IMG/VR virus record: IMGVR_UViG_3300045988_131126
Reading direction: 5' to 3' (one strand)
Source: a virus
Length of the DNA stretch: 64,000 nucleotides
Shown here piece after piece: positions 11,747-33,257 of the stretch. Positions within the stretch are counted from its first letter, which is position 1. Each line of letters opens with the position of its first letter. Below the pieces are notes generated by a model. The model had not been told where the DNA came from and did no database searches. It saw only the letters and a program-made list of their open reading frames with translations. A program made the position numbers and the translations under genes.

Positions 11747-11789
11747 CGGAATACTCCATATGGAGTATTCCGTAATATCTTTATTTTTT
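11747..11789 (+). terminator. rho-independent terminator
   Basis: cggaatactcca-ta-tggagtattccg stem followed by taatatctttatttttt. Confidence 0.75.
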
Positions 11790-11870
11790 GATCGTATACT
11801 ATCATATTGAAAAAATAAATAATAATATAAATCATACTTATTTAAATAAGTGTGTAGAAAGAGGTATGAT
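11772..11870 (+). promoter_or_regulatory. repeated promoter-leader module, copy A
   Basis: gtaatatctttatttttt, then TTGATC-N17-AAAAAT, then leader hairpin catactta/taagtgtg (11833-11854, one U.G pair), then tagaaagagg RBS, then ATG 11871. Confidence 0.5.
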
Positions 11871-12089
11871 ATGAGAAGAGATGAATTCATGAACGCGCAC
11901 GAAGTAAGAATGAGCGAGCTTGAAAAAGCTTGCGAGGATCTTAACGAGATTCTCGGCTCCGATCCTGTAGAAGGATTTGAAGATGATATCCTGGATCCTT
12001 CCCTAGAAAGCGAAAGAGGAATCCAGGATATCCAGACAAAGAATTCTCAAGATTTGGATGACTTATTGAAGGGTCTTGAGAATTTATAA
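11871..12089 (+). CDS. small acidic hypothetical protein (cassette cargo)
   Basis: ATG 11871 lies 7 nt after the conserved GAAAGAGG (the track's GTG at 11850 sits inside the leader). 72 aa. Visibly more G+C than its surroundings. Own promoter module and terminator. Confidence 0.6.
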   Translation: MRRDEFMNAHEVRMSELEKACEDLNEILGSDPVEGFEDDILDPSLESERGIQDIQTKNSQDLDDLLKGLENL

Positions 12090-12096
12090 AAAATAA

Positions 12097-12128
12097 ATAA
12101 CGGATAAGTAAATGCTTATCCGTTATTC
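12097..12128. terminator. bidirectional terminator hairpin between convergent genes
   Basis: aataacggataag-taaatg-cttatccgttatt. It overlaps the stop of 12123..12848. Confidence 0.6.
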
Positions 12129-12848
12129 TTTCCCAAAAGCTGATTTATTTTTTCTTGCTCCAGGTATCTGTCTTCCCTTAGATGCTTTTACTGGAGCACT
12201 CATAGCTTTTTCTGATTTTTGTTGATCTCTTTCAAAATCTGATAAATTAAATCCGTTCTCCGGTCTACCTAAATAATTTACCATATTTTGAGCATATCCA
12301 AACATATCTACTGTATCTATTAGATATTTAAATCCTAGAAATAGATCTGATATCATATCTACATATATAGATGGATCTGATATAGTTATTCTTACTCCTT
12401 GATTTTGGATATTATTCCATTCGATCACTACTGGATCGAACCATAAATATTTACCATCTGGTAATGACATTTTTAATGTATTTCTTCTTTTACAAGTTAA
12501 ATTACCATCTTTAACTTCAAAAGTATTATCTATCATCCATTTAGATGCCATACTTACTAATTCTCTTAATATAATAATATCTTGTATACGGATCATTACA
12601 CTTCGATCCCAATTGTCACCTCCTACGTCTATAGACATATAATACGAAAAACATCTTTTAATAGTTACTGCTACCTGAGTATCGTCATATTTCGATTCAT
12701 AACGATACTCACTGTGAAAAAACCTTCTACTATTATCTATACTTGAATTCTTTTTGGATAATAGTACATTAAATCGCAGATTAATATTATTCCCTAAATA
12801 CATCATATCATCTGTGATTTTATCATAATCTACGTATTCAACTTGCAT
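12123..12848 (-). CDS. hypothetical protein (basic C-terminal tail)
   Basis: 241-aa ORF with AGGGAG RBS. Confidence 0.75.
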   Translation of the reverse strand: MQVEYVDYDKITDDMMYLGNNINLRFNVLLSKKNSSIDNSRRFFHSEYRYESKYDDTQVAVTIKRCFSYYMSIDVGGDNWDRSVMIRIQDIIILRELVSMASKWMIDNTFEVKDGNLTCKRRNTLKMSLPDGKYLWFDPVVIEWNNIQNQGVRITISDPSIYVDMISDLFLGFKYLIDTVDMFGYAQNMVNYLGRPENGFNLSDFERDQQKSEKAMSAPVKASKGRQIPGARKNKSAFGKE

Positions 12849-12897
12849 ATTAACTGTTTAACTCCCTATTATTTATAAAAATATATTATTAAACAGT

Positions 12898-13641
12898 TTA
12901 TCTGGATATAAATTTCCAATTAAGATCTTTCTTCCAACTGATATCATAAGTTCCATTAGATACAGCTATAATTACATCATCTGTCATTCTTCCATAAGAA
13001 TCTAATGATGACAGCATGAAAGAATCCGGATTATTATATATTTTTAACCCAAAATATAAATCTGGGTTTCTAGAAACTTTTCTGGCTTTTTCTACTAAAG
13101 GTATATAACCAGCCAATACGTCAGTAAATGTAATAATCTCCTCTCCCCATTTATCTTCATAAAACTTTATCGGTATTTTATAATAAGGCTCAAGCCTTAT
13201 ATCTGATCCATGCTTTGGACCATTCTGCCTGAATCTAAATACAGAACTTCCAAATATATTATCCCCATCTGGAGATTCTGATAATCTAACTATTGGATAT
13301 TCTGTATCAAGCTCTAATCTTTCTGACGGATATTCTGAAGTATCTCCAGTATACGTGACATATTCCGTAACTTCCTTATCTTTGCACTTATCATTAATAT
13401 CACGTACAATGCTCGGTAATGATTCTTCTACTATAGCATCTGCTACCTTTGTTGCCGTTTTAACAGCACTATTTAATATTGTATCTGCTATACTTGGTTC
13501 TTCTTTCCTCTCCTCCTTAAGTTCTTCATTATCAGAAAAGCACTCTGATAATCTTTGTAATTTTGTTTTGTTATTTACGGAATTACCCTCATAAAAAGTT
13601 TCATAAATTTTATCCGTAAGTGCATCAATAAAAATTCCCAT
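12898..13641 (-). CDS. hypothetical protein
   Basis: 247-aa ORF with AAAGGAGAG RBS. Confidence 0.75.
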   Translation of the reverse strand: MGIFIDALTDKIYETFYEGNSVNNKTKLQRLSECFSDNEELKEERKEEPSIADTILNSAVKTATKVADAIVEESLPSIVRDINDKCKDKEVTEYVTYTGDTSEYPSERLELDTEYPIVRLSESPDGDNIFGSSVFRFRQNGPKHGSDIRLEPYYKIPIKFYEDKWGEEIITFTDVLAGYIPLVEKARKVSRNPDLYFGLKIYNNPDSFMLSSLDSYGRMTDDVIIAVSNGTYDISWKKDLNWKFISR

Positions 13642-13711
13642 TGTTTTCTCTCCTTTTCATTTTATTCATCTATATAATATATAAAGAAAAGAAATTTTGG
13701 AAGTATACTTT

Positions 13712-15256
13712 TCAGTATACTTCCGATTCATAATCATGATATAATATTTTTCCTTTTTCTTTTTTAGACTCTAATCTAGCATGTCTATTTATTAATTCCA
13801 AATCACCTATCTCTACTTCTGTACATCTAGTAGCATATTTATCGAATATAGGTTTCTTATAATTATAATATTTCTTTATCTGATGAAAACTTTTATCTAC
13901 TATTTCTATATACATAGTATTATTTGCTCTGGTTCTACCTAATGTCTGTCTAGCCAAAACCTCTGATTTAAATGGTTCTGCTAATACTACAGTCATCTTT
14001 AATCCATCTATATCTACTGCAGCTCCTGCTGATTTAGTTGTAGATAATATTAATCTTTTATTTAAAGCTTGTTGTTTTTCTTCTTCTGATACCATAGAAG
14101 TATATACACCGACGTTATTTCTAAATTCCTGATGGTTTTCTATGATCCAGTTGTATACTTCTGATATGGCATTATTTGTACCTATATATACCAGGCATTT
14201 TTCATATAATCCAACATTTTCTTCTATTATTTCGAATAATATATCAAGCATCATATAGAAATTATCATTAGTTACTATTAGATTAGTGTACTTATTTCTG
14301 TCTAATCCATATTGGTTTTTACAGCTCGATATCTGTTGCGGAGTAGGTTTACTACTATACAATATACTTAAATATTCAGTATGAGGATCAGTTTCAGGAT
14401 CAAATAAATCTATTGCTAATACATTTTTAAATGATAATTGATAAATATTGTTTTCAAATTCATTTGATCTTAATGCTGTTGCAGTAATATAATAATTCTT
14501 ATAGGTATTTGTATAGTAATCTATTTTCATCATATTATCAAAATTTTGATGAGCCTCGTCGTAGAATTTCAATCCTATTCTTAAATATTGAAATAATTCA
14601 GTTATTTTATCCCATCCATGAGTATCACCATAACTCTTTAATGTAGAATGAGTTACTGTAAAATATTTGATTTTCCTTATTTCTTCTGGTGTTTTGGTTA
14701 ATAATCTATATATACAACCAGAGCCTTTTATATTATATATCTCCTTATCTGTTACATTCGTGTACTGCTTAATTCTATCTATCCATTGAGTTAACCAAGA
14801 ACTTTGCGAGGTTATAATGATAGATTTAATACCTAAATAAGCACTAGTAGCTATAGCTATATAAGTTTTACCTTTACCTGTATATAGATTTAATTGTAAT
14901 TGAGATTTAGTAGCTGTATCTCTATATTCTTCTTTACCTATAGTAAATCTTAATGCTTCTTTTTGTACATCGTTTCTTGGTAAAGTCTTTATCATAATAT
15001 CATTATACATATCGAACTCATCACTCATATTACGTTCTACAATAGCTTTTTGCTCCATTATTTTTTCGACAAAATAAACGTCTATACCTCTCGGGAGATA
15101 TAGAGTACGATTTTCCGTGTCATAAAATAATCCCTGATAGTAATATTGGTGATTCGTTGGGTTAAACATTAAGAAATATTTCTCTAAATCTGGATGTGAT
15201 CCAAATTCATAATCAGTTATTTTTATACATGTATTTTTAACTATTATTTTACTCAT
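13712..15256 (-). CDS. SF2 DEAH-box DNA helicase
   Basis: 514 aa. Walker A LYTGKGKTY (about 14865-14882), DEAH FYDEAHQNF (about 14546-14563), motif VI QTLGRTRA. The C-terminus ends ILYHDYESEVY (13715-13747), a variant of the recurrent motif. Confidence 0.8.
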   Translation of the reverse strand: MSKIIVKNTCIKITDYEFGSHPDLEKYFLMFNPTNHQYYYQGLFYDTENRTLYLPRGIDVYFVEKIMEQKAIVERNMSDEFDMYNDIMIKTLPRNDVQKEALRFTIGKEEYRDTATKSQLQLNLYTGKGKTYIAIATSAYLGIKSIIITSQSSWLTQWIDRIKQYTNVTDKEIYNIKGSGCIYRLLTKTPEEIRKIKYFTVTHSTLKSYGDTHGWDKITELFQYLRIGLKFYDEAHQNFDNMMKIDYYTNTYKNYYITATALRSNEFENNIYQLSFKNVLAIDLFDPETDPHTEYLSILYSSKPTPQQISSCKNQYGLDRNKYTNLIVTNDNFYMMLDILFEIIEENVGLYEKCLVYIGTNNAISEVYNWIIENHQEFRNNVGVYTSMVSEEEKQQALNKRLILSTTKSAGAAVDIDGLKMTVVLAEPFKSEVLARQTLGRTRANNTMYIEIVDKSFHQIKKYYNYKKPIFDKYATRCTEVEIGDLELINRHARLESKKEKGKILYHDYESEVY

Positions 15257-15317
15257 TGCACCTAATTCCCTTCTTTGAGAGCTTTATTTACTTATTTGTA
15301 CGTACAAAAATGATTCC

Positions 15318-15400
15318 GTAATATCTTTATTTTTGTCAAAATTATAGATCTTAATAAATCCTAATACAAATATATATTATATAGGTGAAAATAAAAAGAA
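15318..15400 (+). promoter_or_regulatory. degenerate copy of the repeated promoter-leader module
   Basis: ccgtaatatctttattttt, then ..aaatcct.., then atatatattatataggtgaaaataaaaag. It shares the T-tract box and the ATTATA(G)GTGA box, but the order differs and the hairpin is weak. Confidence 0.3.
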
Positions 15401-15414
15401 AGGAGCCGATAATT

Positions 15415-17450: not shown

Positions 17451-17645
17451 ATGGAACATTCAAAATCTACTAAAAAAGATCTAATGAAACAAATGATCAA
17501 GAAATTAAATAAGCAGGATAAAGAAATAAACCAATTAAAATTGCTACTCTATAATAATATTCAAACTAAGAGATTAATTCAAGATGAAAAACCTTCTCGC
17601 CAAATTAGTTTTCTTAGAGGGGAGGATGAAACATTTTATGATTAA
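17451..17645 (+). CDS. small hypothetical protein (coiled-coil-like)
   Basis: 64-aa ORF with GAAAGAGG RBS. Its stop overlaps the ATG of the next gene. Confidence 0.5.
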   Translation: MEHSKSTKKDLMKQMIKKLNKQDKEINQLKLLLYNNIQTKRLIQDEKPSRQISFLRGEDETFYD

Positions 17646-18718: not shown

Positions 18719-18724
18719 AAAACG

Positions 18725-18757
18725 AGAAAGCTATCCAATGGATAGTTTTCTTTTTTC
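18725..18757 (+). terminator. rho-independent terminator
   Basis: gaaagctatcc-aat-ggatagttttc (contains a plus-strand G.U pair) followed by tttttt. Confidence 0.65.
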
Positions 18758-18765
18758 TACGATAC
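18751..18765 (+). repeat. exact 15-mer TTTTTTCTACGATAC, copy 1 of 4
   Basis: Identical 15-mers at 18751, 26467, 26849 and 33637, all plus strand, each just downstream of a gene's 3' end. This copy lies directly on the terminator T-tract. Confidence 0.8.
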
Positions 18766-18767
18766 GC

Positions 18768-18866
18768 GTAATATCTTTATTTTTTGATCATATAATATTA
18801 TAGTGATAATAATAAAAAATAATACATAAATCCTATATAATAAATATAGGTAGAAAGAGGAACAAT
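18768..18866 (+). promoter_or_regulatory. repeated promoter-leader module, copy B
   Basis: gtaatatctttatttttt, then TTGATC (18784-18789), N17 ending TGA, TAATAA (18807-18812), then leader hairpin cctatat/atatagg (18832-18850), then tagaaagagg, then ATG 18867. Confidence 0.55.
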
Positions 18867-19130
18867 ATGAGAAGACTTGATACCATGAGAAACATTTTAA
18901 AGAAAGCTAAGACCAACGATCTAACAAAAATAAAATCGAAAGCGCTTACGCCGCTTATGTATGATAAAGATAAGCATACATTTTTACAACTCTCTCCATT
19001 GTGGGAGGGACATGGATGGAACTCAAAACTAATAGGTGTGAGAGTACCTCACACCTATTGGATTGGGGAAGTACTTGTAACAAAATATGAGGATTTTAAA
19101 TTAACACTTCCTCGGAGATACTATAGATAA
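18867..19130 (+). CDS. small hypothetical protein (cassette cargo)
   Basis: 87 aa. Conserved GAAAGAGG RBS. Own promoter module and terminator. Confidence 0.65.
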   Translation: MRRLDTMRNILKKAKTNDLTKIKSKALTPLMYDKDKHTFLQLSPLWEGHGWNSKLIGVRVPHTYWIGEVLVTKYEDFKLTLPRRYYR

Positions 19131-19133
19131 ATT

Positions 19134-19171
19134 ATAAAGAGGTGTAAGGATTATACCTTACACCTCTTTAT
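19134..19171. terminator. bidirectional terminator between convergent genes
   Basis: ataaagaggtgtaagg-attata-ccttacacctctttat (16-bp perfect stem). Confidence 0.75.
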
Positions 19172-19194
19172 ACCCAAAACTATTTTATTTTTTA

Positions 19195-21315
19195 TTAAAT
19201 ACTCATTATATTACTATATGGAATATTGTTGTTTCCGTTAGTCTGAATATTTACAGACTTAAGCGGGAAATTACCAATATTATCATTTATAATAGTTGTA
19301 TAATCAATAAACTCTACAACCCATTTAGGTACTGCTACATCTAACGGTATTGCTAATGATGTAAATTCATTACCTTTACTTGTAGCTTTTCCTTTAAAAA
19401 TACTTGTATCCTTTAATACGTTCTTTATCTTTTCGTATGTTTCTGGATAAGTATCTTTTATTTTTTCTACAGTTTCTTCATTTACAACTACTTTTACAAT
19501 ATCCATACTATTTCTAGCTGTTAAGTCAAATCCTTCAAGACCATCATCTTTAATATCATTCCATATAACCGCAGCTTTTATACCTTGTATACCCATAGGA
19601 TCATCATAATGATCCATAGATTTTACATTTACCGGTTTATAGAATTCTTTTTCTCCATTATTAAGAGATCTAAATATCTTTTTATCTAATATCGCTAATC
19701 TCTTTATAATTCTAACTTGATCTATTACATCTGTATCAAGTATCTCTTCATATAATATCTTAGATAAAGCTGACTGTATAGATTTATTTAAGGTTACCTT
19801 TCTAATTTGTAAACCTTTAATATCCATACTTTCTTCTTCTGGTACTTTATGACCTTCCTGAAGTTCCTGTTTAGATGCATAGTTCTTCATACCTTCTGTT
19901 AATAATGCTCTTTTCATAAGAAACTCATTTTTCATATAGATAAGACATTTTCTATCTTCTCCATAAGAATGATTAGCTTTAGTATATTCTACCATATAAT
20001 CATTTACCAAAGCACCTACTATATAAGCCATAATATTAACCAATGAATATCTTAAATTATCAGAACCAGTTTGCTTATTAGGATTTACCAATCTTTTTCT
20101 AATTACAATATCATCATTAATGAAATCATAATCTTCATAATCTTCTTCAATAGGTTTAGTTTCTCCTAATACTGGATTATCTATTTCATTTAAGATTTTG
20201 AATTTGTGACCTTTACATTTCTCAAGACCAAATCTGAACCAAGCTTCAAGACTAATAATAGCACTATCTGTATCAGAGATACCAGCAATATTTTTAATCA
20301 TATTATCGCATCTATCAACTTTATCCATATATTGATATTTAAAATATACAAACTCTTTTAAGATATCTACTAAAGTATCTATCTCTACTTTGATTTCTTT
20401 TGGTGGCTCGTTTGGATCCATAAATGGTTGATCTAATTTTTCCAATAAAATTAATAATGCATTCGTCATTGATGCATTATCCATGAACTCGTAAAGGTTA
20501 TTTTTGTAATACAGTCTATTTATATCTTCTTGATCAAGTCTATTAATAATATCCCATATGATCTGTAAATCCATTTCATCAGGTAACCATTTTATTAATC
20601 CTTGCTTATAATCACCTATAGTAAGTACAATTTTATTGAAACATTCTTCTTTAGAAATATTACGATCTAATATATCGCAGTCTCTATATCTTCTTTCTTT
20701 TCTTTCACTTACTACACTATCAATAAACCATACAACTTCTTCAAGAGAAGCAAATTTAACGTTATTAGATAGAAAGCTTTCGAAAAACATAGTTGCTGTA
20801 CTAATGAGTTCTCTACCTGTTGTAGTAATGGATTCTGCTACAAAGATATTATAAAACATTGCTTGACATTGACCAAGTACACCGTATATTCCATTACAGT
20901 CAATTTTATCAAGTAATTGCAATAGATTATATTTCACAAACATTTCAGATCCTTTTGGATACTTAAACATTTCTGCTTTATGAACACCTCGCATTTCCAT
21001 AAATCCTCTAATCATTTCTATTAAAGGATTAGGAACTGTTCCATGTCTCATAAACATTACTCCAGATGGAGTACATATTGGTTGCTGAGATGCTATATAA
21101 TTTGTAAACTCTGATAATAACATCTCATGTTCTTTCTTATTGTAGTTATTGACTATTTTACATTTAGTATCAACAAATCTTTTCTTTACAGAATAATCAA
21201 TAGCATCTTTTATCTCTTGATTATTTAGGCTTGGATATATTAAAGACATTACTGTATGCATTTGCTGCATATATCTCATAACGCCAGCCGAATTATCTAC
21301 TGCTGAATTAACCAT
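19195..21315 (-). CDS. family-B DNA polymerase, C-terminal fragment (fingers / palm motifs B and C / thumb)
   Basis: 706 aa. Motif B KIDCNGIYGVLGQ (Kx3NSxYG), motif C GISDTDSAII (about 20260-20280), KKRY-like GMKNYA. No exonuclease motifs and no motif A; those are in 40602..42539. Confidence 0.85.
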   Translation of the reverse strand: MVNSAVDNSAGVMRYMQQMHTVMSLIYPSLNNQEIKDAIDYSVKKRFVDTKCKIVNNYNKKEHEMLLSEFTNYIASQQPICTPSGVMFMRHGTVPNPLIEMIRGFMEMRGVHKAEMFKYPKGSEMFVKYNLLQLLDKIDCNGIYGVLGQCQAMFYNIFVAESITTTGRELISTATMFFESFLSNNVKFASLEEVVWFIDSVVSERKERRYRDCDILDRNISKEECFNKIVLTIGDYKQGLIKWLPDEMDLQIIWDIINRLDQEDINRLYYKNNLYEFMDNASMTNALLILLEKLDQPFMDPNEPPKEIKVEIDTLVDILKEFVYFKYQYMDKVDRCDNMIKNIAGISDTDSAIISLEAWFRFGLEKCKGHKFKILNEIDNPVLGETKPIEEDYEDYDFINDDIVIRKRLVNPNKQTGSDNLRYSLVNIMAYIVGALVNDYMVEYTKANHSYGEDRKCLIYMKNEFLMKRALLTEGMKNYASKQELQEGHKVPEEESMDIKGLQIRKVTLNKSIQSALSKILYEEILDTDVIDQVRIIKRLAILDKKIFRSLNNGEKEFYKPVNVKSMDHYDDPMGIQGIKAAVIWNDIKDDGLEGFDLTARNSMDIVKVVVNEETVEKIKDTYPETYEKIKNVLKDTSIFKGKATSKGNEFTSLAIPLDVAVPKWVVEFIDYTTIINDNIGNFPLKSVNIQTNGNNNIPYSNIMSI

Positions 21316-24422: not shown

Positions 24423-25442
24423 ATGAGCAACGTATCTATGTTTTTATTTAATGATGATGAGGAAATGAAACCTAAACCATCAGAAATTAAACGTTTACAG
24501 GAAGGTAGTGTGAAATGTATTGAAAAGAAGAAAGAACCATATGTAGAAGGAATGATCTTCGTATTACAAATGGATAGAGAGATTGATAAAGATAAGCATT
24601 GCATTATATCTCCAGGAGGATATGAGTTTAAATCCAGTAAAAGTGAAAAATCTTTACAGTTTGATTTCTTTGACTATGCAGGATATATAGATTCAAATGA
24701 TAAGACAAAGATATTATTTGAAACTGAAGTATTAGACAGACAGTCTTTTCCAGGAACTATAGATAAATTAAATAAATCATTTTGTGAAGATATAAACGAA
24801 ATTACAGAATTTTATGTTTATACTGGAGAAGATGAAGATCCAGAACTAAACTTATCTAAAATTATAGACATAAGTTTATTATTTACAGATGGTACTAAAA
24901 TTGATATCAAAGAAGAAGTTATAAATAAATACAACGAAAAGATTACTAAAACTAAAGAAAAGAAGAAGATGCCGATGATTAATAGATTATCGAGCATGTC
25001 TTTAACATTAAAATTTAAAAATCTTCCAGATGATATTATGTATAAATCTTTAAGTGAAAGTAAATCTATAACTATATTTGACATAATACAATTATCATCA
25101 TCAAGATTAGGAAAATCTGCAAAGTTTGCATTCTGTGGAGAGGTGGAAAATCATTTCTTCGAGCATGACAAATCCATATTAATAGAAAAGCAGAATTATT
25201 TGGATAATAGTGCATTCTATGATGACATAGATATACTTACAGAAGATTTTATCAAATCGGTTGATGTAATAAATTATATATCCTTCGATGATGTATTATT
25301 AATGCCGAATCTTCCGATACAGTCTATTCTTACAATTAAATATGAATTCGAAAATGGCGATGAATACTACGCAAATGATTATGTAATAGACGAGTTCAAT
25401 AGAAGAATTAAAGAAAATATGAACTTAATCCATATTAATTAA
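24423..25442 (+). CDS. hypothetical protein
   Basis: 339-aa ORF with GAAAGGAG RBS. Confidence 0.75.
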   Translation: MSNVSMFLFNDDEEMKPKPSEIKRLQEGSVKCIEKKKEPYVEGMIFVLQMDREIDKDKHCIISPGGYEFKSSKSEKSLQFDFFDYAGYIDSNDKTKILFETEVLDRQSFPGTIDKLNKSFCEDINEITEFYVYTGEDEDPELNLSKIIDISLLFTDGTKIDIKEEVINKYNEKITKTKEKKKMPMINRLSSMSLTLKFKNLPDDIMYKSLSESKSITIFDIIQLSSSRLGKSAKFAFCGEVENHFFEHDKSILIEKQNYLDNSAFYDDIDILTEDFIKSVDVINYISFDDVLLMPNLPIQSILTIKYEFENGDEYYANDYVIDEFNRRIKENMNLIHIN

Positions 25443-26107: not shown

Positions 26108-26455
26108 ATGATACAGGTATTTCCTAAAGATGAAAATGTAAATATGAATCTAGAAGTTCCTACATTTGTAAATACTAGGAAAAATGATTACATATTATCT
26201 AAGAAATATACTAAAGAAAAGGAGGGTCTTACAATGAAAAGACTCAATAAGAAAATCGAAACTATAAACAATATTATTCTGGCAGTTGCCATTGCCGGAA
26301 TAATATTCTGGCTCCTTGGAGATGGCCTTTTTGGTCATCTCGGAGGACTTATAGTTACTATTATAGTAACTATAAGCATTTCCTTATTGACAGTAAGGAA
26401 ACTTCAATTGAAGAATAAGAAACTTCAATTGAAGTTAATGAAAGCAAGACGATAA
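26108..26455 (+). CDS. small membrane protein (two predicted TM helices), holin-like topology
   Basis: ATG 26108 follows GGAGAGG. A stronger internal start at ATG 26234 follows AAGGAGGG. TM segments IILAVAIAGIIFWLLG and LGGLIVTIIVTISISLLTV. Charged C-terminus. Confidence 0.5.
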   Translation: MIQVFPKDENVNMNLEVPTFVNTRKNDYILSKKYTKEKEGLTMKRLNKKIETINNIILAVAIAGIIFWLLGDGLFGHLGGLIVTIIVTISISLLTVRKLQLKNKKLQLKLMKARR

Positions 26456-26472
26456 GTCTTGCTTTCTTTTTT
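26440..26472 (+). terminator. rho-independent terminator
   Basis: gaaagcaagac-gataa-gtcttgctttc followed by tttttt. The stem includes the stop codon. Confidence 0.75.
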
Positions 26473-26481
26473 CTACGATAC
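26467..26481 (+). repeat. exact 15-mer TTTTTTCTACGATAC, copy 2 of 4
   Basis: See 18751. Lies directly on the terminator T-tract. Confidence 0.8.
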
Positions 26482-26574
26482 TCGTAAAATCGTTTTTTTT
26501 TGAGTGTATATTATTATAGTGATAAATAATAATAAATCCTACTTTTAAAATAAGTAGGTAGAAAGAGGTATAAT
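26482..26574 (+). promoter_or_regulatory. repeated promoter-leader module, copy C
   Basis: TTGAGT, N17 ending TGA, TAAATA, then leader hairpin cctactt/aagtagg (26538-26558), then tagaaagagg, then ATG 26575. Confidence 0.5.
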
Positions 26575-26802
26575 ATGTGGAATTTATTTGGCATAGATGA
26601 TTTTTTAACAGACCAATTTTCTGAGGAGGCTTCTGCATTATTAGAAGACCCTCAGGAAGGGGATTTAGAAAAACTAAAAGATATTTTTAAGAAATATTCC
26701 TGCAACGCTATGTGGTGGGAGATAAAACCGGTGTATGACCGGTATTATTCTGAGATTGAATATAAGCTCAGAAAAATAAAAAATAAATTAGAAGAAAGCT
26801 AG
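26575..26802 (+). CDS. small acidic hypothetical protein (cassette cargo)
   Basis: 75 aa. Conserved RBS. Own promoter module and terminator. Confidence 0.6.
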   Translation: MWNLFGIDDFLTDQFSEEASALLEDPQEGDLEKLKDIFKKYSCNAMWWEIKPVYDRYYSEIEYKLRKIKNKLEES

Positions 26803-26819
26803 TAATGCTAGCTTTCTTC
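26791..26819 (+). terminator. terminator hairpin
   Basis: gaagaaagctag-taatg-ctagctttcttc (12-bp stem containing the stop codon). The T-tract is weak. Confidence 0.5.
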
Positions 26820-26854
26820 TAATTATACTAATTTACGTATACTCTTTATTTTTT
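26819..26854 (+). repeat. 36-bp direct repeat, copy 1 (ctaattatactaatttacgtatactctttatttttt)
   Basis: 34/36 identical to 27091-27126. The two copies bracket an ORF-free cassette. Confidence 0.8.
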
Positions 26855-26863
26855 CTACGATAC
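26849..26863 (+). repeat. exact 15-mer TTTTTTCTACGATAC, copy 3 of 4
   Basis: See 18751. About 30 nt downstream of the 26791-26819 terminator hairpin, on the T-tract that ends the 36-bp direct repeat. Confidence 0.8.
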
Positions 26864-26880
26864 TATGGCAAAATTGTATT

Positions 26881-26930
26881 TGTAATATCTTTATTTTTTA
26901 ATTATATATTATTATAGTGATAAGAATAGA
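26881..26930 (+). promoter_or_regulatory. repeated promoter box, copy D (no RBS or ORF downstream)
   Basis: tgtaatatctttatttttt, then TTAATT, N17 ending TGA, TAAGAA. Same architecture as copies B and E, but followed by hairpins instead of the tagaaagagg RBS. Confidence 0.45.
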
Positions 26931-27090
26931 AAATCTATATCTTATCCGGTAGTATGTCCGAAACATACATAAAAGGAAAGAGCACTTCATAGTGCTCATT
27001 ATATTACTTTACTTTATTAAGGCGGGCTTAGGTTGCGATCTTTTTGGTCGTAACCTAGGCTCAAAATCAAATAATAATATTTTATTTTTT
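26931..27090 (+). ncRNA. candidate small RNA expressed from promoter box D
   Basis: No ORF or RBS. Three hairpins: 26952-26968, 26980-26997, and a 14-bp stem at 27026-27060 with three G.U pairs that pair only in the plus-strand transcript. Ends in ttttatttttt (27080-27090). Confidence 0.3.
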
Positions 27091-27126
27091 CTAATTATAC
27101 CAATTTACATATACTCTTTATTTTTT
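27091..27126 (+). repeat. 36-bp direct repeat, copy 2
   Basis: ctaattataccaatttacatatactctttatttttt. See 26819. Confidence 0.8.
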
Positions 27127-27169
27127 GTCTAAAACAACACTGTAATATTGATTGAGGAGATGATGTAAA

Positions 27170-29386
27170 TTGGTAATACCTGCTGAGAAACAACAAGTAC
27201 AACCTATTACTATATATTATCAGACATCTACTACTAATCAAAGTTTCATGGATATGCATTTTCAATTAAAACAACAAGGACGTGTTAATAATAGATTTTT
27301 CCTTGCATTATACGATAGAGACTTGATAGGAGTAGATCCAAGGGATCCTAGACTTCCACAATATATGAAAGCTAAAGTGCTTAATGAATGTGCACATAAC
27401 TATTGGTATTTTATTAGAGAAGTAATACGTATTCCAGATCAAGGTGGTGCTGCTAACTCTGGTGTAAGGTACAAATTACATAGAGGAAACTTAGCATTAT
27501 CTTTTTGCTTATTAAATAACTGGAATATTTTTTTGGAATTACCTCGTCAGCATGGTAAAACCATGGCTGCGTTATGTTGGTATTTATGGGTATTTAACTT
27601 TAGAACTACCAACTCAGAAATTATGTTTATGAATAAGAAACATGATGACTCTAAAATGAACTTACAGAGATTAAAGATACTTAGAGCTGCTCTTCCTACA
27701 TATTTACAATTTGCAAATCAATATGGTAAAGATGGTACAAAATTAAGAGCATCTAATACATTAGAGACAATTACTCATATTATAAATAATAACAAGATTA
27801 CTACTAAACCTAGTGCTAGAAGTAAGACTATAGCTAATAACCTTGGTCGTGGTTGTACTATGCCTATGCATTGGTATGACGAGTATGCATTTATTGTATA
27901 CAATAAGATCATATATCAAGCTGCTACTCCTGCATACAAGACAGCATCAGAAAATGCTAAAAAGAACCATGCACCATATGGTATTCTTATAACAACAACA
28001 CCTGGCGATTTAAGTACCGATGAAGGAATGGATGCTTATGAAACAAGAAACTCTGCTACGCCATTCCTGGAAGAATTCTATGATTATACTCCACAGCAAT
28101 TAAAAGAAGTTGCTGAAGCTAATACGGATTCTTCTTTCTTTTATATAAGATTTACTTATCAACAATTAGGTTCTTCCGAACAGTACTTCAAAGAAATGGT
28201 TCGAGATCTTAAGAAAGATTGGGCTGCTATCAGACGTGAAGTTTTACTTGAGTGGTCTCTTACATCTGATAATTCTCCATTTGATCCTAATGACCTTGAG
28301 CTTATTGCTACTATGGTAAGAGAACCTATTAGAAGAATAGTATTAAGAAAAGGATTCGCTATTGATCTTTATAAACAAATAGAAGATCCTCATTATCCTC
28401 CTATTATAGGTGTCGACGTTTCTGGTGGTTATAGTAGGGACTCTTCTGCTGTAACTATTATAGATAGCAAGACTACAGATGTGGTAGGAGACTTTAACTG
28501 TAACTATATATCTACTAATGATTTGGCTCATTTACTGTATGAATTAGTAGTTAAGTTTATGCCTAATGCTATAGTAAATGTAGAGCGAAATGGTGGTTTT
28601 GGTGCTTCTGTATTATCAACACTAAAAGAAACCAAAATAAAACGTAATCTATATTATGAAATCAAAGATAGAATATTCGAGGAACGAACGTTTGGTGGAA
28701 TGAATCAAACTATAAAACATACTCAGAAATGTAAAGTATACGGATTCGATGAAACAAAGAATAGTCGAGATCTGTTAATGCAGATATTAAGAGAAAGGGT
28801 AGATAACCATAAATCTAAATTCTTATCTCCTAAGATATTAGCAGAATTACGTACATTGGAATATAAGAAGAATGGTAGAATTGAGCATACTGCTCAAGGA
28901 CACGATGACCAGATATTCTCTTATCTAATGGCTATGTATGTATGGTATGAAGGAAAAGAACTTACTGAAAGATATGGTTTACAGAAAGTAACTATACATA
29001 CGGATGAAGATGATGAAGATAGAATTGATATTGATAATAACTATACAGATATATCTGAAGCTATTAATGAAGAATCTGATATGGTTCAAGAGCAATTAGA
29101 TGTACTATCTTCTAATAAAGCTATACTATATGATGAATGGAGAGCGCAAGAAAAAGCTAAAGACCAAGAAGCTGTAAATAGGTTATTACAGACTAAAGTT
29201 GGTCAGCAAGCTTATATCGAAAAATATCATATAGATCCAGATGATCTTCCGATATTAGGGCAAGCCTATTCTATTCCACAGGATGTATTTGATGATTATT
29301 ATGATGATTTTCAAGTAGATCCATTAACTAAACAAAAGTTAGTAGAAGAAGAAAGATTAAGTAAAATATATAGTATGAAATATTAA
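27170..29386 (+). CDS. terL: terminase large subunit
   Basis: 738 aa with a TTG start 10 nt after GAGGAG. Walker A-like ELPRQHGKTMA (about 27544-27562), Walker B HWYDEYAF, coupling motif ITTTPGD. Nuclease-domain acidic motifs IIGVDVSGG and GHDDQIFSYLMA. The layout is T4 gp17-like. Confidence 0.85.
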   Translation: MVIPAEKQQVQPITIYYQTSTTNQSFMDMHFQLKQQGRVNNRFFLALYDRDLIGVDPRDPRLPQYMKAKVLNECAHNYWYFIREVIRIPDQGGAANSGVRYKLHRGNLALSFCLLNNWNIFLELPRQHGKTMAALCWYLWVFNFRTTNSEIMFMNKKHDDSKMNLQRLKILRAALPTYLQFANQYGKDGTKLRASNTLETITHIINNNKITTKPSARSKTIANNLGRGCTMPMHWYDEYAFIVYNKIIYQAATPAYKTASENAKKNHAPYGILITTTPGDLSTDEGMDAYETRNSATPFLEEFYDYTPQQLKEVAEANTDSSFFYIRFTYQQLGSSEQYFKEMVRDLKKDWAAIRREVLLEWSLTSDNSPFDPNDLELIATMVREPIRRIVLRKGFAIDLYKQIEDPHYPPIIGVDVSGGYSRDSSAVTIIDSKTTDVVGDFNCNYISTNDLAHLLYELVVKFMPNAIVNVERNGGFGASVLSTLKETKIKRNLYYEIKDRIFEERTFGGMNQTIKHTQKCKVYGFDETKNSRDLLMQILRERVDNHKSKFLSPKILAELRTLEYKKNGRIEHTAQGHDDQIFSYLMAMYVWYEGKELTERYGLQKVTIHTDEDDEDRIDIDNNYTDISEAINEESDMVQEQLDVLSSNKAILYDEWRAQEKAKDQEAVNRLLQTKVGQQAYIEKYHIDPDDLPILGQAYSIPQDVFDDYYDDFQVDPLTKQKLVEEERLSKIYSMKY

Positions 29387-29390: not shown

Positions 29391-29427
29391 TACCCCATAG
29401 ATATTAATATCTATGGGGTAATTATTT
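29391..29427 (+). terminator. rho-independent terminator
   Basis: accccatagata-ttaa-tatctatggggt followed by aattattt. Confidence 0.65.
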
Positions 29428-29478
29428 ATGGATAATTAAACCATATTATAATTTAAAATAGATAAGGAGAGAAAATCT

Positions 29479-30997: not shown

Positions 30998-31009
30998 AGG
31001 TGATATTTT

Positions 31010-31219
31010 ATGAAGAAAAATGAGTTGGTCGTATACAGACCACCCGAATATTATTTGAATTACTCTAAAACTACTAATATTAGTCTTATTTGTAATTCAA
31101 ATCGAATGGAAAATGTAGTATTACCAATATTAACTCTTTATAATTTACTACAAAGACTACGAGGTGGAACAAATGAACAAACGACAGAAAAAGAAACTGA
31201 AGAAAAGACATACACCTAA
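31010..31219 (+). CDS. small hypothetical protein
   Basis: 69-aa ORF with AGAGGTG RBS. Its 3' end overlaps the next ORF by 47 nt, so its true extent is uncertain. Confidence 0.4.
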   Translation: MKKNELVVYRPPEYYLNYSKTTNISLICNSNRMENVVLPILTLYNLLQRLRGGTNEQTTEKETEEKTYT

Positions 31220-31436
31220 TATAATCACAGAATTTAGAGATACAACTCGAATAGAAGGGGCTTCTTTACCAGATGAAATATTACAAGAAATATCAGATAG
31301 TATTAAAAAGATTATGGGTACATTCAAACCAATTTCATTTAAAGATATACCATATATAGTACCTGTTATTCTAGATGAGGATACCAAAATTGAAGTATAC
31401 GATATAATTATTCAGGAGGATAATAAAAATGAATAA
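31173..31436 (+). CDS. small hypothetical protein
   Basis: ATG 31173 lies 5 nt after GAGGTGG (the track's GTG at 31164 is inside the RBS). 87 aa. Confidence 0.5.
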   Translation: MNKRQKKKLKKRHTPNIITEFRDTTRIEGASLPDEILQEISDSIKKIMGTFKPISFKDIPYIVPVILDEDTKIEVYDIIIQEDNKNE

Positions 31437-32622
31437 CGAGAATTTAAAAACAGTATTAACAGATGAGCAAGTAGATCAAATTGCAGAGAAATTAGAAGAA
31501 AGTAGATCAGAAGATAATAGAAAGATTGAAAATCTTCCTTCTAATAAAGATACTAATGAAAGAGTACCAGAAGATCCAAATGCTTATGAATCAGAAACAG
31601 TAACAGCCTATGTAGATCCTATGACAGGAGAAAAGAAACCGGTTCCTACAGAGATCGAACCATTGACTAATATTGATTTAGATACTTCTGGATTTGATAA
31701 TTTATTAAATATGAGTGACGATGAAATCAGAAACTTAGAGATATCCGATGAGGAACTTAAAGAATCTTTACCAGTAAAAGCATCTAAAGAAGATTTCGTT
31801 ACTTTCAGAAAAGTATTCGATAGATATAGAAAAGGAGAAGACTTCTCTGTATATAATGCATTACCACCATCATTTAAGAGATTCGTAGATGAAAGCATTG
31901 CATCTATTTCTATGGAGAGTCTATCCAAAGCACAGATTAAAGATGTAAGATCAGTTATTACTAAATCCATCTTTGATGAGATTATCCAAGATACTTATCA
32001 AAATAAAGTATATTTCGATTTAAATACATCAGTAGATAATGCATTTAAAGATTTATCTAAATCTATTACATCTGAAACTAATATGGATGTAAGACATAAG
32101 ATTCTACAATTCCCGAAAATTGCGGAAAAGATCAAAGATAAAAATCCAGAAAAGGCTAAAGCTTTATTAGAATTTATCGATTCTTATGAAGAAGCAAGAA
32201 ACTATAACAAATTAATCGAAGCCGTTAAAACTGGGAAACTTAGAGCTAAAAAGATTGAATTAGATAAGTTCGATAATAGAGTTTGTATTCCATATGAAGA
32301 TAAATATGCAAAAAGTAATAGAATCGTAGATTCTTTGAGAAAATTACCATTTATCATTTCTAGACATATTGGATGTGATGCTGAAGACTCTAAGAGAATT
32401 ATTATTGCTTATGTAAAATATATCGCATTTGCTAAATTAAATATCGAAAAGCTTCCTGATTATTGCTTTATGTATTACTTCGTAAAAAATATTCTTGGAA
32501 TGGATAATTACGATCAATCAGTATTTGAAGAGAAATCTTTCTATACTAATATTGAAAAGAATCTTCAGAAATTACTGGATGCTATCCTTTCCATTGAAGA
32601 CAATATTATAAATAAGAAATAA
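31429..32622 (+). CDS. hypothetical protein (acidic N-terminal region)
   Basis: 397-aa ORF with CAGGAGG RBS. Confidence 0.75.
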   Translation: MNNENLKTVLTDEQVDQIAEKLEESRSEDNRKIENLPSNKDTNERVPEDPNAYESETVTAYVDPMTGEKKPVPTEIEPLTNIDLDTSGFDNLLNMSDDEIRNLEISDEELKESLPVKASKEDFVTFRKVFDRYRKGEDFSVYNALPPSFKRFVDESIASISMESLSKAQIKDVRSVITKSIFDEIIQDTYQNKVYFDLNTSVDNAFKDLSKSITSETNMDVRHKILQFPKIAEKIKDKNPEKAKALLEFIDSYEEARNYNKLIEAVKTGKLRAKKIELDKFDNRVCIPYEDKYAKSNRIVDSLRKLPFIISRHIGCDAEDSKRIIIAYVKYIAFAKLNIEKLPDYCFMYYFVKNILGMDNYDQSVFEEKSFYTNIEKNLQKLLDAILSIEDNIINKK

Positions 32623-32645
32623 TTTAAGGAGGCAATTTAATAAAC

Positions 32646-33122
32646 ATGATTTACAATCACGGAGAGGTAGTTCGCTATGAGGTAAGAGAATTAGCTCAAT
32701 TAAGATTACATCTTGGCAATTTCACTGATGACGATCTTAAGACAGAAACTACTTGTATTACTGAAGGGGATAAGGTGTCTTTATTAACAAGGGAGTTTGA
32801 TAAAGAACACAAAGAAGTATTCACAATAGTTAGGGGTTTAGTAAAAGAAATTTCAACAAACATGGTTAGATATGGTATGTCTAAACAAGACCAAATGAAA
32901 TGTATTTTCATACGTATGGATTGTTCCAAAGACGGAAAATCAGATATACAAGCAATCAAACTATGCGATGTTGTAGAGGTTCATGATATAAATTATGCAT
33001 ATGAAGAAATTAAAACAAAAGAAATAGAAGTTGTTGAATCTAATCCAGAGTGGAATATTGAATCAGGGTCAGATAAAAATATCGCTACTGTAGATTTAAA
33101 AACAAATGTAAAACTTCAATAA
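32646..33122 (+). CDS. hypothetical protein
   Basis: 158-aa ORF with TAAGGAGG RBS. Confidence 0.7.
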   Translation: MIYNHGEVVRYEVRELAQLRLHLGNFTDDDLKTETTCITEGDKVSLLTREFDKEHKEVFTIVRGLVKEISTNMVRYGMSKQDQMKCIFIRMDCSKDGKSDIQAIKLCDVVEVHDINYAYEEIKTKEIEVVESNPEWNIESGSDKNIATVDLKTNVKLQ

Positions 33123-33134
33123 TATTTATTTATT

Positions 33135-33179
33135 CCATATACTCTATATATAAGAGTATATGGAATATCTTTATTTTTT
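33135..33179 (+). terminator. rho-independent terminator
   Basis: ccatatactct-atatata-agagtatatgg followed by aatatctttatttttt. Confidence 0.7.
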
Positions 33180-33257
33180 AATTATATAATATTATAGTGA
33201 TAATAATAAAAAATAAATAAATCCTACGTTAAACTCGTAGGTAGAAAGAAGGAAATT
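33164..33257 (+). promoter_or_regulatory. repeated promoter-leader module, copy E
   Basis: aatatctttatttttt, then TTAATT, N17 ending TGA, TAATAA, then leader hairpin cctacg/cgtagg (33223-33241), then tagaaagaagg, then ATG 33258. Confidence 0.55.

Follow-up and report, generated by a model that had tools for sequence, protein, structure and literature searches.

A repeated, probable early-gene cassette in a human-gut jumbo phage, with an AR9-like promoter motif and a hairpin adjoining the ribosome-binding site

The window analysed here is the whole 64,000-nucleotide stretch of IMG/VR record IMGVR_UViG_3300045988_131126 and, judging from its sequence, is an uncultured AR9/PBS1-like jumbo phage of the human gut. 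Its terminase is 35–39% identical to the terminases of AR9, PBS1, Goe21, BpSp and Staphylococcus jumbo phages, and three of its genes are homologs of AR9 gp154, gp089 and gp105, subunits of the non-virion RNA polymerase (RNAP; names from PMC9209446). No virion RNAP gene was found within the window. Four full copies of a repeated module lie at 11772-11870, 18768-18866, 26482-26574 and 33164-33257, with intrinsic-terminator-like hairpins directly upstream. Their features are as follows:

11746..11773, plus strand: terminator-like hairpin of module 1, its 3' arm extending into the -38 box
11771..11809, plus strand: predicted early promoter of module 1, CGTAATATC box from -38, T-tract, core GTATACTAT-CATATT-G; predicted +1 at 11809
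11833..11854, plus strand: leader hairpin of module 1, CAUACUUA/UAAGUGUG, 8 bp including one U.G pair
11855..11864, plus strand: Shine-Dalgarno (SD) box of module 1, UAGAAAGAGG, 0 nt past the hairpin
11871..12089, plus strand: ORF of module 1, 72 aa, no family match; replaced in L025 and L016
18724..18752, plus strand: terminator-like hairpin of module 2, then TTTTTCTACGATAC
18767..18805, plus strand: predicted early promoter of module 2, CGTAATATC box at -38, T-tract, core ATATAATAT-TATAGT-G; predicted +1 at 18805
18832..18850, plus strand: leader hairpin of module 2, CCUAUAU/AUAUAGG
18851..18860, plus strand: SD box of module 2, UAGAAAGAGG
18867..19130, plus strand: ORF of module 2, 87 aa, no family match
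26440..26466, plus strand: terminator-like hairpin directly ahead of module 3
26483..26521, plus strand: predicted early promoter of module 3, CGTAAAATCG box at -38, T-tract, core GTATATTAT-TATAGT-G; predicted +1 at 26521
26538..26558, plus strand: leader hairpin of module 3, CCUACUU/AAGUAGG
26559..26568, plus strand: SD box of module 3, UAGAAAGAGG
26575..26802, plus strand: ORF of module 3, 75 aa; then terminator 26786-26824
33133..33165, plus strand: terminator-like hairpin of module 4, read by eye, its 3' arm overlapping the -38 box
33161..33199, plus strand: predicted early promoter of module 4, TGGAATATC box at -38, T-tract, core ATATAATAT-TATAGT-G; predicted +1 at 33199
33223..33241, plus strand: leader hairpin of module 4, CCUACG/CGUAGG
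33242..33251, plus strand: SD box of module 4, UAGAAAGAAG
33258..33578, plus strand: ORF of module 4, 106 aa; then terminator hairpin 33590-33616

The coordinates and overall layout of the four copies agree with the original prediction, which had read them as a promoter-leader module, a reading that is supported here; in detail, copy 1 reads AAATCAT where AAATCCT had been given, copy 3 carries the box variant GTAAAATCGTTTTTTTTT and copy 4 reads TAGAAAGAAG. A repeat search grouped the four and also yielded a promoter-only copy at 26876-26939. The partial copies described earlier (26881-26930, 15318-15400, 5816-5846 and 1881-1910) exist as well, and were resolved into the following features:

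1879..1900, plus strand: core-only early promoter, AATTATATATTAT-AATAGT-G; predicted +1 at 1900; gene from 1937; AR9 matrix score 20.1
5814..5835, plus strand: core-only early promoter, AATTGTATATTAT-TACTGT-G; predicted +1 at 5835; gene from 5874; AR9 matrix score 12.3
15318..15387, plus strand: decayed module, box CGTAATATCTTTATTTTTG and remnant AAATCCTA, then a perfect AR9-consensus promoter
Promoter after the decayed module, plus strand: AAATATATATTAT-ATAGGT-G; predicted +1 at 15387; gene from 15415; AR9 matrix score 21.6
26881..26919, plus strand: fifth promoter copy, TGTAATATC box at -38, core ATATATTAT-TATAGT-G; predicted +1 at 26919; AR9 matrix score 19.7
26919..27095, plus strand: candidate non-coding RNA, strongly structured and predicted to be driven by the fifth promoter copy; folding z = -8.4

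The copies at 1881-1910 and 5816-5846 are core promoters alone, while that at 26881-26930 is a full promoter with no hairpin and SD box downstream. Rfam and tRNA searches gave no match for the RNA candidate; in L015, L018 and L028 its slot is filled by a hairpin-SD-ORF cassette. The upstream box AATATCTTTATTTTTT occurs without mismatch at 11774, 18770, 26884 and 33164, with a single mismatch at 15320 and as a three-mismatch variant at 26486; at no more than one mismatch, GTAGAAAGAGG gave 7 matches (0.92 expected; equalled in 0 of 100 shuffles). The claim that all copies lie on the plus strand holds for the extended module, each copy of which shares the orientation of its own small plus-strand ORF, but the core promoter motif is also present on the minus strand, ahead of minus-strand genes.

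Each of the four hairpins is the sole stable element in its predicted leader, with weak stem energies (-4.4 to -6.9 kcal/mol). A covariance model (R1: flank, 6-bp stem and UAGAAAGAGG; filters off), a scan proposed in the original prediction, recovered exactly the four full copies in the window (E = 3e-11 to 6e-5; next match, E = 0.24). Across the window and related human-gut phage contigs, 66 model matches reduced to 40 distinct sequences, in which every cell (100%) is paired, and complementarity is kept in 36 further distinct copies. The upper two stem pairs, left free by the search pattern, include CG, GC, UA, AU, UG and GU; none of 500 shuffles equalled the observed values, and slid controls were 26–44% paired. 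The covariation first read from four copies is thus borne out by evidence far beyond what four could give. The pattern that retrieved most of the extra copies fixes the four basal pairs, so the conservation of these pairs is partly made by the search; sequence conservation of the CCUA/UAGG base pairs and of the AAAU flank nevertheless extends to copies that the pattern did not force (L010 10552, L054 4360 and L018 5843). G.U pairs number 6 and A.C mismatches 2, and since interior G.U pairs would become C.A mismatches on the other strand, the structure most likely acts as RNA, from the sense strand.

The box UAGAAAGAGG is an extended SD sequence and, as originally noted, the hairpin adjoins it: the distance between them is 0 nt in every copy, whereas that from the predicted start to the hairpin varies from 17 to 28 nt. 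Cofolds used a Firmicutes-type 16S rRNA tail; both this tail and the host are assumed, on the strength of how the phage itself uses SD sequences and of what is generally known about Firmicutes. In these cofolds the hairpin is retained, and pairing of the box extends as far as the rRNA's terminal A, directly against the stem (duplex energies from -9.6 to -11.8 kcal/mol). UAGAAAGAGG is kept though UAGAAAGGAGG would pair more strongly (-9.6 versus -16.7 kcal/mol). The hairpin is also found between cistrons, at sites whose vicinity shows no match to the early-promoter core.

A purely structural role in cis leaves the CCUA/UAGG and AAAU conservation and the sub-optimal UAGAAAGAGG unexplained, and both favour recognition by a specific factor. 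It is possible, if doubtful, that the hairpin and UAGAAAGAGG together form an operator bound by an RNA-binding factor acting in trans; the promoter and cassette parts of the model would be unchanged. The factor might come from the host, or it might be a phage protein comparable to T4 RegA or RegB, a translational repressor or endoribonuclease, and it would control the whole class of small early genes post-transcriptionally, for example in late shut-off. Consistent with this, the stem base and the AAAU and UAGAAAGAGG flanks are conserved while upper stem and loop vary freely, in the unforced copies too; the box is held weaker than the best possible SD; and the element sits on the ribosome-binding site (RBS) of at least 27 unrelated genes as well as between cistrons. 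However, no candidate binding protein was found, loops of 3–18 nt and stems of 5–12 bp would be unusual for a protein operator unless the base and flanks alone are read, and recent cassette spread with recombination could likewise keep the flanks alike. We favour a hairpin tied to the RBS in cis, as the fixed SD geometry suggests.

The promoter resembles those recognised by the virion-packaged multisubunit polymerase of the phage itself, not those of the host enzyme. The AR9 early consensus is AAATATATATTAT-N6-G+1, also written TATATTAT-N6-G+1 (PMC5312081). Scored with a matrix derived from 38 mapped AR9 early promoters, sites 15387, 1900 and 26919 reach 19.7–21.6, against a shuffle maximum of 16.1; modules 3 and 4 score 14.0 and 13.5, and site 12896 scores 18.1, yet drives no gene. 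In three of the four full modules the core varies by one base (TATAATAT or TATACTAT), and two one-base-variant modules score below 8. For the AR9 enzyme, at least one single promoter change is reported not to be tolerated; given the variant cores, the enzyme of this phage must have a tolerance of its own. All five window copies have a CGTA-type box starting at exactly -38; among the 38 AR9 promoters analysed, CGTAT stands at -38 in eight and at -36 in a ninth.

The motifs are partitioned by gene class. The early core lies upstream of the RNAP subunit beta'C and betaC genes and the betaN-containing operon, as it likewise precedes phage RNAP subunit genes in AR9, and also upstream of DNA polymerase, ligase and small ORFs of unassigned function; the AR9 late motif AACA-N6-TA is found upstream of terminase, sheath and virion protein genes in the window. 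From the AR9 rule we infer both the polymerase and the transcription start, the G of GTGATAA. This predicted start lies upstream rather than downstream of the hairpin, which would consequently fall in the 5' UTR. Of nine mapped early leaders in the first 50 kb of AR9, six begin GAUA, like the predicted window leaders, and eight are short and essentially unstructured.

The original prediction had seen here a host sigma-A/sigma-70 promoter (TTGATC or TTAATT, 17 nt, TGnTAATAA), a T-rich UP element and a hairpin stabilising the 5' end of the mRNA, a combination that is now improbable. TTGAT-type hexamers and a TG do occur at plausible spacing, and Firmicutes use a 5' stem-loop with ribosome binding as an mRNA stabiliser, for example in the aprE leader and STAB-SD, both cited in PMC3997798. 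However, the -10 candidates (TAATAA, AAAAAT, TAAATA and TAAGAA) lack the key T at -7 in four of five copies and show no conservation as a hexamer. Conservation instead peaks within the supposed spacer, a stretch that fits the early promoter of the AR9 virion RNAP and whose core also precedes the phage RNAP subunit genes, and the supposed UP element contains the CGTA box. Sigma-70-like matches are not enriched (131 versus 143 expected), and the module is absent from the listing of the best 60 of these 131. The stabiliser idea is weakened because the hairpin keeps its place at the SD box, not at the predicted 5' end, and occurs between cistrons; the other suggestion of the original prediction, that the hairpin binds a regulator, may apply.

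Close relatives have exchanged or lost the genes behind the leader, and the changes fall exactly at module borders; breaks lie at 33270-33632, 18870-19180 and 11875-12086 in relatives that are 92–98% identical. The module 2 ORF is replaced in L005 and L046, and only its C-terminal part in L006 and L025; at module 4, highly divergent alleles are swapped in (L018 and L047), with breaks at the ATG and TTTATTTTTTCTACGATAC. L002 is without the stretch 26539-26843, a deletion between two promoter copies, and L016 has a module-3-type leader at the module-1 locus. The leader stands ahead of at least 27 unrelated small protein families; one hairpin precedes different genes, and one gene family follows different hairpins. 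Behind the repeated unit, small genes are swapped, deleted or inserted much as in the T4 PeSL cassettes. The module thus also serves as a recombination border, in addition to its RNA structure and not instead of it. That the element matters as DNA alone, as a site of recombination or site-specific exchange with the hairpin a cruciform or by-product, would suit these border-exact exchanges and interchangeable combinations but is very improbable, as the interior G.U pairs are confined to the sense strand, compensatory changes keep pairing yet lose the stem sequence identity that recombination needs, the spacing to SD (0 nt) and ATG is fixed, and the element is invariably co-oriented with the downstream ORF.

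The module is probably an early-gene cassette of an AR9/PBS1-like jumbo phage, combining a virion-RNAP promoter with a hairpin that acts as an RBS-linked cis element. An intrinsic terminator would close the upstream unit, followed by an extended early promoter (CGTAAT box at -38, T-tract, core TATA(T/A)TAT-N6, G at +1) read by the virion-packaged multisubunit RNAP rather than with host sigma-70/sigma-A. The transcript is predicted to begin GAUAA and to continue through 17–28 nt of A-rich unstructured leader into a stem-loop of 5–12 bp with conserved CCUA/UAGG pairs and free upper stem and loop. UAGAAAGAGG would follow without a spacer, complementary to the extreme 3' terminus of 16S rRNA of the Firmicutes type (host assumed), and then six nucleotides, the ATG, a small gene of no known family and a terminator. 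Within the RBS, the hairpin would set its helix end flush against the SD/anti-SD duplex and keep the SD exposed, which would favour 30S binding, and ribosome occupancy would protect the mRNA. Because the cassette unit is repeated, it is also a site of recombination between relatives, and any gene inserted there would receive the same strong early expression.

The four full copies of the repeated promoter-leader module, with the layout given in the original prediction, were borne out when the sequence was read at their positions. A repeat search grouped these four with a fifth copy (26876-26939) that holds the promoter only.

11772-11870 (+), module 1
18768-18866 (+), module 2
26482-26574 (+), module 3
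33164-33257 (+), module 4
26881-26919, promoter-only fifth copy, predicted +1 at 26919

Exact copies of the upstream box AATATCTTTATTTTTT lie at 11774, 18770, 26884 and 33164, with a 1-mismatch copy at 15320, and GTAGAAAGAGG with at most one mismatch gave 7 matches (0.92 expected). A covariance model of the leader hairpin (R1) was built from eight equal-length copies comprising the flank, a 6-bp stem and the box UAGAAAGAGG. Searched against both strands of the window with filters off, R1 returned exactly the four full copies (E = 3e-11 to 6e-5), the next-best match having E = 0.24.

The window has a G+C content of 29%. Megablast of 9 kb against deposited phage genomes gave no nucleotide match, sensitive blastn of the module against deposited phages gave no meaningful match, and a literature search on this gut clade returned nothing specific; the clade is known only from metagenomes. 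Judged from its proteins, the phage is an AR9/PBS1-like jumbo phage. Its terminase (27170-29386) shares 35-39% identity with the terminases of Bacillus phages Goe21, BpSp, PBS1 and AR9 and of Staphylococcus jumbo phages, and three ORFs match AR9 proteins that are subunits of its non-virion RNA polymerase (RNAP) (PMC9209446):

22150-24357, match to AR9 gp154, beta'C of the non-virion RNAP
57868-60156, match to AR9 gp089, betaC of the non-virion RNAP
51050-52813, match to AR9 gp105, betaN of the non-virion RNAP

Protein identity to AR9 is only 28-39%. The RNAP genes within the 64-kb window are homologs of non-virion subunits only, and a virion RNAP would be expected by analogy with all characterised relatives, which use two polymerases (PMC7598289). 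Two separate ORFs, 19195-21315 (-) and 40602-42539 (-), both match DNA polymerase families, one covering the C-terminal and the other the N-terminal profile regions; lying 19 kb apart, they look like a split DNA polymerase. A 1528-aa ORF at 7151-11737 (+) joins a SNF2-type helicase region to further domains, and its C-terminal part (~10322-11368) fails to align in L025, a close relative.

According to the AR9 transcription study, the 41 mapped early starts of that phage have in common AAATATATATTAT-(6N)-G+1 (PMC5312081), and early promoters of the AR9/phiKZ type are read by the virion multisubunit RNAP (Lavysh et al. 2017, PMC5312081; review PMC7598289). The best-conserved part of the module, which the original prediction took for the 17-nt spacer of a sigma-70 promoter, matches this early motif. 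The following sites were found in the window:

predicted +1 at 15387, AAATATATATTAT-ATAGGT-G, perfect match
predicted +1 at 26919, AATTATATATTAT-TATAGT-G
predicted +1 at 1900, AATTATATATTAT-AATAGT-G
predicted +1 at 33199, AATTATATAATAT-TATAGT-G
predicted +1 at 18805, GATCATATAATAT-TATAGT-G
predicted +1 at 26521, GAGTGTATATTAT-TATAGT-G
predicted +1 at 11809, GATCGTATACTAT-CATATT-G

A weight matrix made from 38 mapped AR9 early promoters (shuffle maximum 16.1) scored 21.6 at 15387, 20.1 at 1900 and 19.7 at 26919, compared with 14.0 for module 3, 13.5 for module 4 and less than 8 for modules 1 and 2, the last because they carry one-base variants of the core. A further site at 12896 (+), scoring 18.1 and thus above the shuffle maximum, is flanked on both sides by minus-strand genes and has no gene to drive.

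The resemblance to AR9 extends beyond the AT-rich core TATATTAT near -10, although the full modules of the window carry the core variants TATAATAT or TATACTAT. A G, the predicted +1, stands six nt downstream of the core in all five module copies and at most other sites, as in AR9. In Table S2 of the AR9 study, (C)CGTAT(T/C)AAA occurs in 9 of 38 early promoters, with CGTAT exactly at -38 in 8 of the 9 (PMC5312081); in the window, a CGTAA, TGTAA or TGGAA box starts exactly at -38 from the predicted start in 5/5 copies, followed by a T-tract where AR9 has an A-tract. The region originally described as an UP element thus has an AR9 counterpart, a CGTA(T/A) box shared by a subset of the promoters. 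No mention of this upstream CGTAT element was found in the text available of PMC5312081. Examples in AR9 include g047 and g048, adjacent tiny genes with a promoter each. Of nine AR9 early transcripts examined, six begin with GAUA followed by an A-rich leader, and the predicted transcripts of the window begin with GAUAA.

The core [TG]ATA[ATC]TAT-N6-[GA] was found upstream of 17 of the 58 tabulated genes, and 13 of these matches, placed 26-90 nt before the downstream gene, read as promoters that drive it. Genes so preceded include those for beta'C and betaC, the betaN operon, a DNA polymerase part, ligase and small ORFs of unknown function. The order UvsX, early promoter, betaC known from AR9 recurs in the window (UvsX at 60251-61501, motif at 60206, then betaC). 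At 60202-60236 (-), the early core before betaC sits within an inverted repeat, AATCATAGGTATAAT / ATTATACCTATGATT, so that promoter and start would fall inside a potential stem-loop, as in some subclasses of the T4-type phage promoter/early stem-loop cassette (PeSL).

These features argue against the sigma-70 promoter originally proposed. The supposed -10 hexamers (TAATAA, AAAAAT, TAAATA and TAAGAA) are without the T at position 6 (-7) in 4/5 copies, conservation is highest in the supposed spacer and not in the hexamers, and a sigma-70 consensus scan showed no enrichment (131 sites found, 143 expected), with the module not among the best 60 of the 131. By strong analogy with AR9, from which both start site and polymerase are taken, the module promoter is most probably of the phage-polymerase type.

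As in AR9, the early motif before non-virion RNAP subunit and replication genes is accompanied by a separate motif before structural genes. The terminase, sheath and virion structural protein genes and the gene at 33707 have the AR9 late consensus AACA-(6N)-TA at 37-69 nt upstream, and it also occurs ahead of two non-structural genes (3407 and 21476); genome-wide it is depleted (44 sites, 142 expected).

27134-27145, late motif upstream of the terminase
33663-33674, late motif upstream of the gene at 33707
~34510-34521, late motif upstream of the tail sheath (position from offsets)
~39811-39822 (-), late motif upstream of the virion structural protein (position from offsets)
~3365-3376, late motif upstream of the gene at 3407 (position from offsets)

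The late promoter of AR9 requires uracil in DNA, so by analogy the gut phage of the window may also have dU-containing DNA.

Predicted terminators lie directly upstream of modules 1-3 (11746-11773, 18724-18752 and 26440-26466), and a terminator-like hairpin at 33133-33165, read by eye outside the scanned range, precedes module 4; overall, terminator-like sites number 31 where 5.1 are expected. The four downstream ORFs (72-106 aa) gave no PHROG or Pfam match. In all, 55 loci (numbers with the prefix L) were gathered from public collections by pattern scans, the source-labelled contigs being human-gut metagenome assemblies. Among the contigs are ODJP01000004.1, OEAP01000013.1 and IMGVR_UViG_3300045988_135219, at 118-235 kb, and several relatives that share 92-98% identity with the window. 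Among these relatives, breakpoints fall at the module ends and at the next terminator in L002, L005, L016, L018, L025, L046 and L047. The segment 33270-33632 is replaced in L018 and L047, with flanks identical up to the Shine-Dalgarno (SD) sequence and again from TTTATTTTTTCTACGATAC; 18870-19180 is replaced in L005 and L046, and 11875-12086 in L025 and L016, the module-1 locus of L016 having a module-3-type leader. L002 lacks 26539-26843, a deletion between two neighbouring promoter copies. Taken over all loci, the leader stands before no fewer than 27 unrelated protein families; a single hairpin type can be followed by four different families, and one family can have different hairpins ahead of it. 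On the pattern of these exchanges, the module is a cassette border with PeSL-type behaviour. A 64-aa ORF at 17451-17645 (+) has the module form of the SD (GAAAGAGG) with no promoter or hairpin; it is among the few segments that do not align in the close relatives L005, L006 and L025, and may be a cassette that has decayed or lacks a promoter.

The fifth promoter copy drives no ORF and is instead predicted to drive a structured RNA of ~175 nt at 26919-27095 (+), with a minimum free energy of -60.1 kcal/mol (z = -8.4) and a 17-bp stem. No Rfam or tRNA match was found for it. The RNA is conserved in L002, and a hairpin-SD-ORF cassette takes its place in L015, L018 and L028. As an antisense RNA to the module leaders it was rejected, with duplex energies no better than those of shuffles (z -0.1 to +0.9).

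A second repeat, AATTTAC(G/A)TAT(A/T)CTCTTTATTTTTT, was noted at 26827-26863, 27099-27135 and 33615-33651, and also at 18752-18765 and 26468-26481. The copies at 26827 and 33615 are preceded by a terminator hairpin and followed by CTACGATAC, and that at 27099 is followed by GTCTAAAAC; TTTTTCTACGATAC has four exact copies, all on the + strand. The CGTATAC-T-tract part of the repeat resembles the -38 box of the early modules, with no core promoter behind it, and the repeat may be a termination-associated or orphan upstream element.

The covariation originally noted in the leader hairpin holds in the larger sample, in which R1 finds 66 copies, 40 of them distinct, with all cells paired. Since the search pattern fixed four basal pairs, the informative positions are the two upper pairs left free: one is CG in 13, GC in 12, UA in 8, AU in 2 and UG in 2, and the other GC in 13, AU in 8, UA in 8, CG in 2, GU in 1 and UG in 1. 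None of 500 shuffles matched the observed pairing or covariation, and slid controls were 26-44% paired. Chance matches in two G+C-rich contigs (L022 and L052) serve as an internal negative control, gaining no more than a single G.U pair on top of the four fixed ones; the 7-bp stem of L050, also in a G+C-rich contig, we take to be chance. Interior G.U pairs (6) exceed A.C mismatches (2, both in one doubtful extension), which favours folding of the sense RNA. Judged by this covariation, the leader hairpin is a selected RNA structure.

Full stems are 5-12 bp, and loops are 3-18 nt without conservation. The hairpin is the sole stable element of each predicted leader, and the stems are modest (-4.4 to -6.9 kcal/mol). 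Rfam gave no match at the gathering threshold in the window, module 2 searched at E up to 10 reached at best 8.9 bits against a gathering score of 43 bits, and the tRNA scan gave no match. The hairpin was found in none of nine AR9 early leaders examined, eight of which are short (30-109 nt), essentially unstructured and without a hairpin before the SD, the ninth being long; it is also absent from the g154 and g087 leaders. The AR9 study mentions an uncharacterised early 5'-UTR motif (PMC5312081).

The hairpin was originally said to abut a box carrying the ribosome-binding site (RBS), and this box is indeed an extended SD sequence. We take the 3' end of Firmicutes-type 16S rRNA to be CCUCCUUUCUA and assume this tail for the host. 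The box is then the complement of CCUCCUUUCUA minus one G: UAGAAAGAGG pairs with CCUCCUUUCUA-3' of the assumed tail over 10 bp with one bulged C, an extended complementarity like that of STAB-SD, with duplex energies of -9.6 to -11.8 kcal/mol compared with -16.7 for a perfect UAGAAAGGAGG. Other genes of the phage have AGAAAGGAG or GGAGG as SD, and the gene at 24423 has a perfect TAGAAAGGAG, a usage that supports a Firmicutes-type host. When cofolded with the assumed tail, the hairpin is kept and the box is paired up to the terminal A of the rRNA, so the intermolecular helix would start flush with the stem.

In every copy, those not constrained by the pattern among them, the hairpin-to-UAGAAAGAGG distance is 0 nt. 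Most copies have a predicted distance of 17-28 nt from transcription start to hairpin, and two have 46 and 59 nt. The hairpin-SD unit is also met immediately behind upstream stop codons, where the early-promoter core has no match close by (twice in L054, and in L019 and L020/L032). The fixed spacing to the box, the variable 5' distance and the intercistronic copies together suggest that the function belongs to the RBS and not to the 5' end. The intercistronic hairpin-SD stems (L054 4060-4400, with two in succession, L020 3420-3462, L032 5100-5142 and L019 836-870) are 8-13 bp. PHROG matches of L019-L021 and L053-L055 were uninformative on phage family; the MAG bins that hold L054 and L053, Oscillospiraceae and Bacillota respectively, may hint at the host group.

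We therefore prefer, by inference from this geometry, a cis-acting role linked to the RBS. The stem would form a fixed helix end beside the SD/anti-SD duplex and keep the SD exposed; an exposed SD would give uniform strong initiation, and ribosome occupancy would in turn protect the mRNA. Ribosome binding at a strong SD protects Bacillus mRNAs (aprE, STAB-SD and hbs), according to titles cited in PMC3997798 and to PMC5737220.

A rather unlikely alternative is that the conserved AAAU-CCUA[stem]UAGG-UAGAAAGAGG serves a dedicated trans-acting factor as its recognition site. A purely structural role is opposed by the sequence conservation of CCUA/UAGG and AAAU and by the keeping of a box weaker than an optimal SD; both fit a specific binding factor, but no homolog or binding protein for RegA/RegB-like control was identified. 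Such a factor would exert class-wide post-transcriptional control over small accessory mRNAs made by the virion polymerase, which could work by timed shut-off, by selective translation or by the sorting of early mRNAs. A 5' mRNA stabiliser, one of the two roles originally proposed for the hairpin, is disfavoured in its 5'-terminal aprE/ermC form by a hairpin lying 17-28 and up to 59 nt after the predicted start. A terminator or attenuator was rejected, as the hairpin is followed by UAGAAAGAGG with no U-run and the terminator scan made no + strand call there.

The leader hairpin and its promoter can be set beside several known systems. The promoter class is already known from AR9. The cassette behaviour is also known, but from another phage family and promoter type: the PeSLs of T4-type phages combine a strong early promoter with a terminator stem-loop and an SD/ATG, precede genes of unknown function and mediate modular shuffling (Arbiol et al. 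2010, PMC2839356; Comeau et al. 2014, PMC4122927). Shared with these are the terminator stem-loop and strong early promoter with SD and start codon at the 3' end, the many repeats mostly before small genes of unknown function, and the indels and replacements between close relatives bounded by the motif. However, the PeSL promoter is of the host sigma-70 type in T4-like phages, whereas that of the window is of the AR9 early type in an AR9/PBS1-like phage; and the PeSL stem-loop is a terminator/attenuator around the promoter, while the window adds a covarying 5'-UTR hairpin flush with the SD. Stabilisers combining stem-loop and SD are known in Firmicutes with different geometry. In aprE (5' stem-loop with binding of the ribosome), STAB-SD, the SP82 polypurine and hbs (titles cited in PMC3997798; PMC5737220), the likeness lies in a 5'-UTR stem-loop combined with a strong polypurine SD that is complementary to the 3' end of 16S rRNA, but the hairpin of the window is off the predicted 5' end, fixed to the SD, also intercistronic, and weak in its stems. 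The hairpin-SD leader has no Rfam family and was not found in the literature consulted here on AR9, PeSLs and Firmicutes stabilisers.

In T4, RegA and RegB control early mRNAs at their ribosome-binding sites. The leader is similar to their targets as a common sequence at the initiation region of many unrelated early genes, but it consists of a hairpin and purine box and not of RegA or RegB target sequences. If the trans-acting factor were real, the jumbo phages would have a RegA-like regulon whose operator travels with each newly acquired gene, and a hairpin serving as operator would raise the question of how early genes are turned off in jumbo phages.

Sequence alone thus yields what is likely the full early and late promoter grammar of an uncultured gut relative of AR9, and PeSL-like shuffling of cassettes extends beyond T4-like phages and host-type promoters. 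Small, fast-evolving early genes are the usual class of host-takeover and anti-defence functions. Such genes are marked by the hairpin-SD leader, a compact RNA motif with good covariation, which could serve to harvest them from metagenomes.
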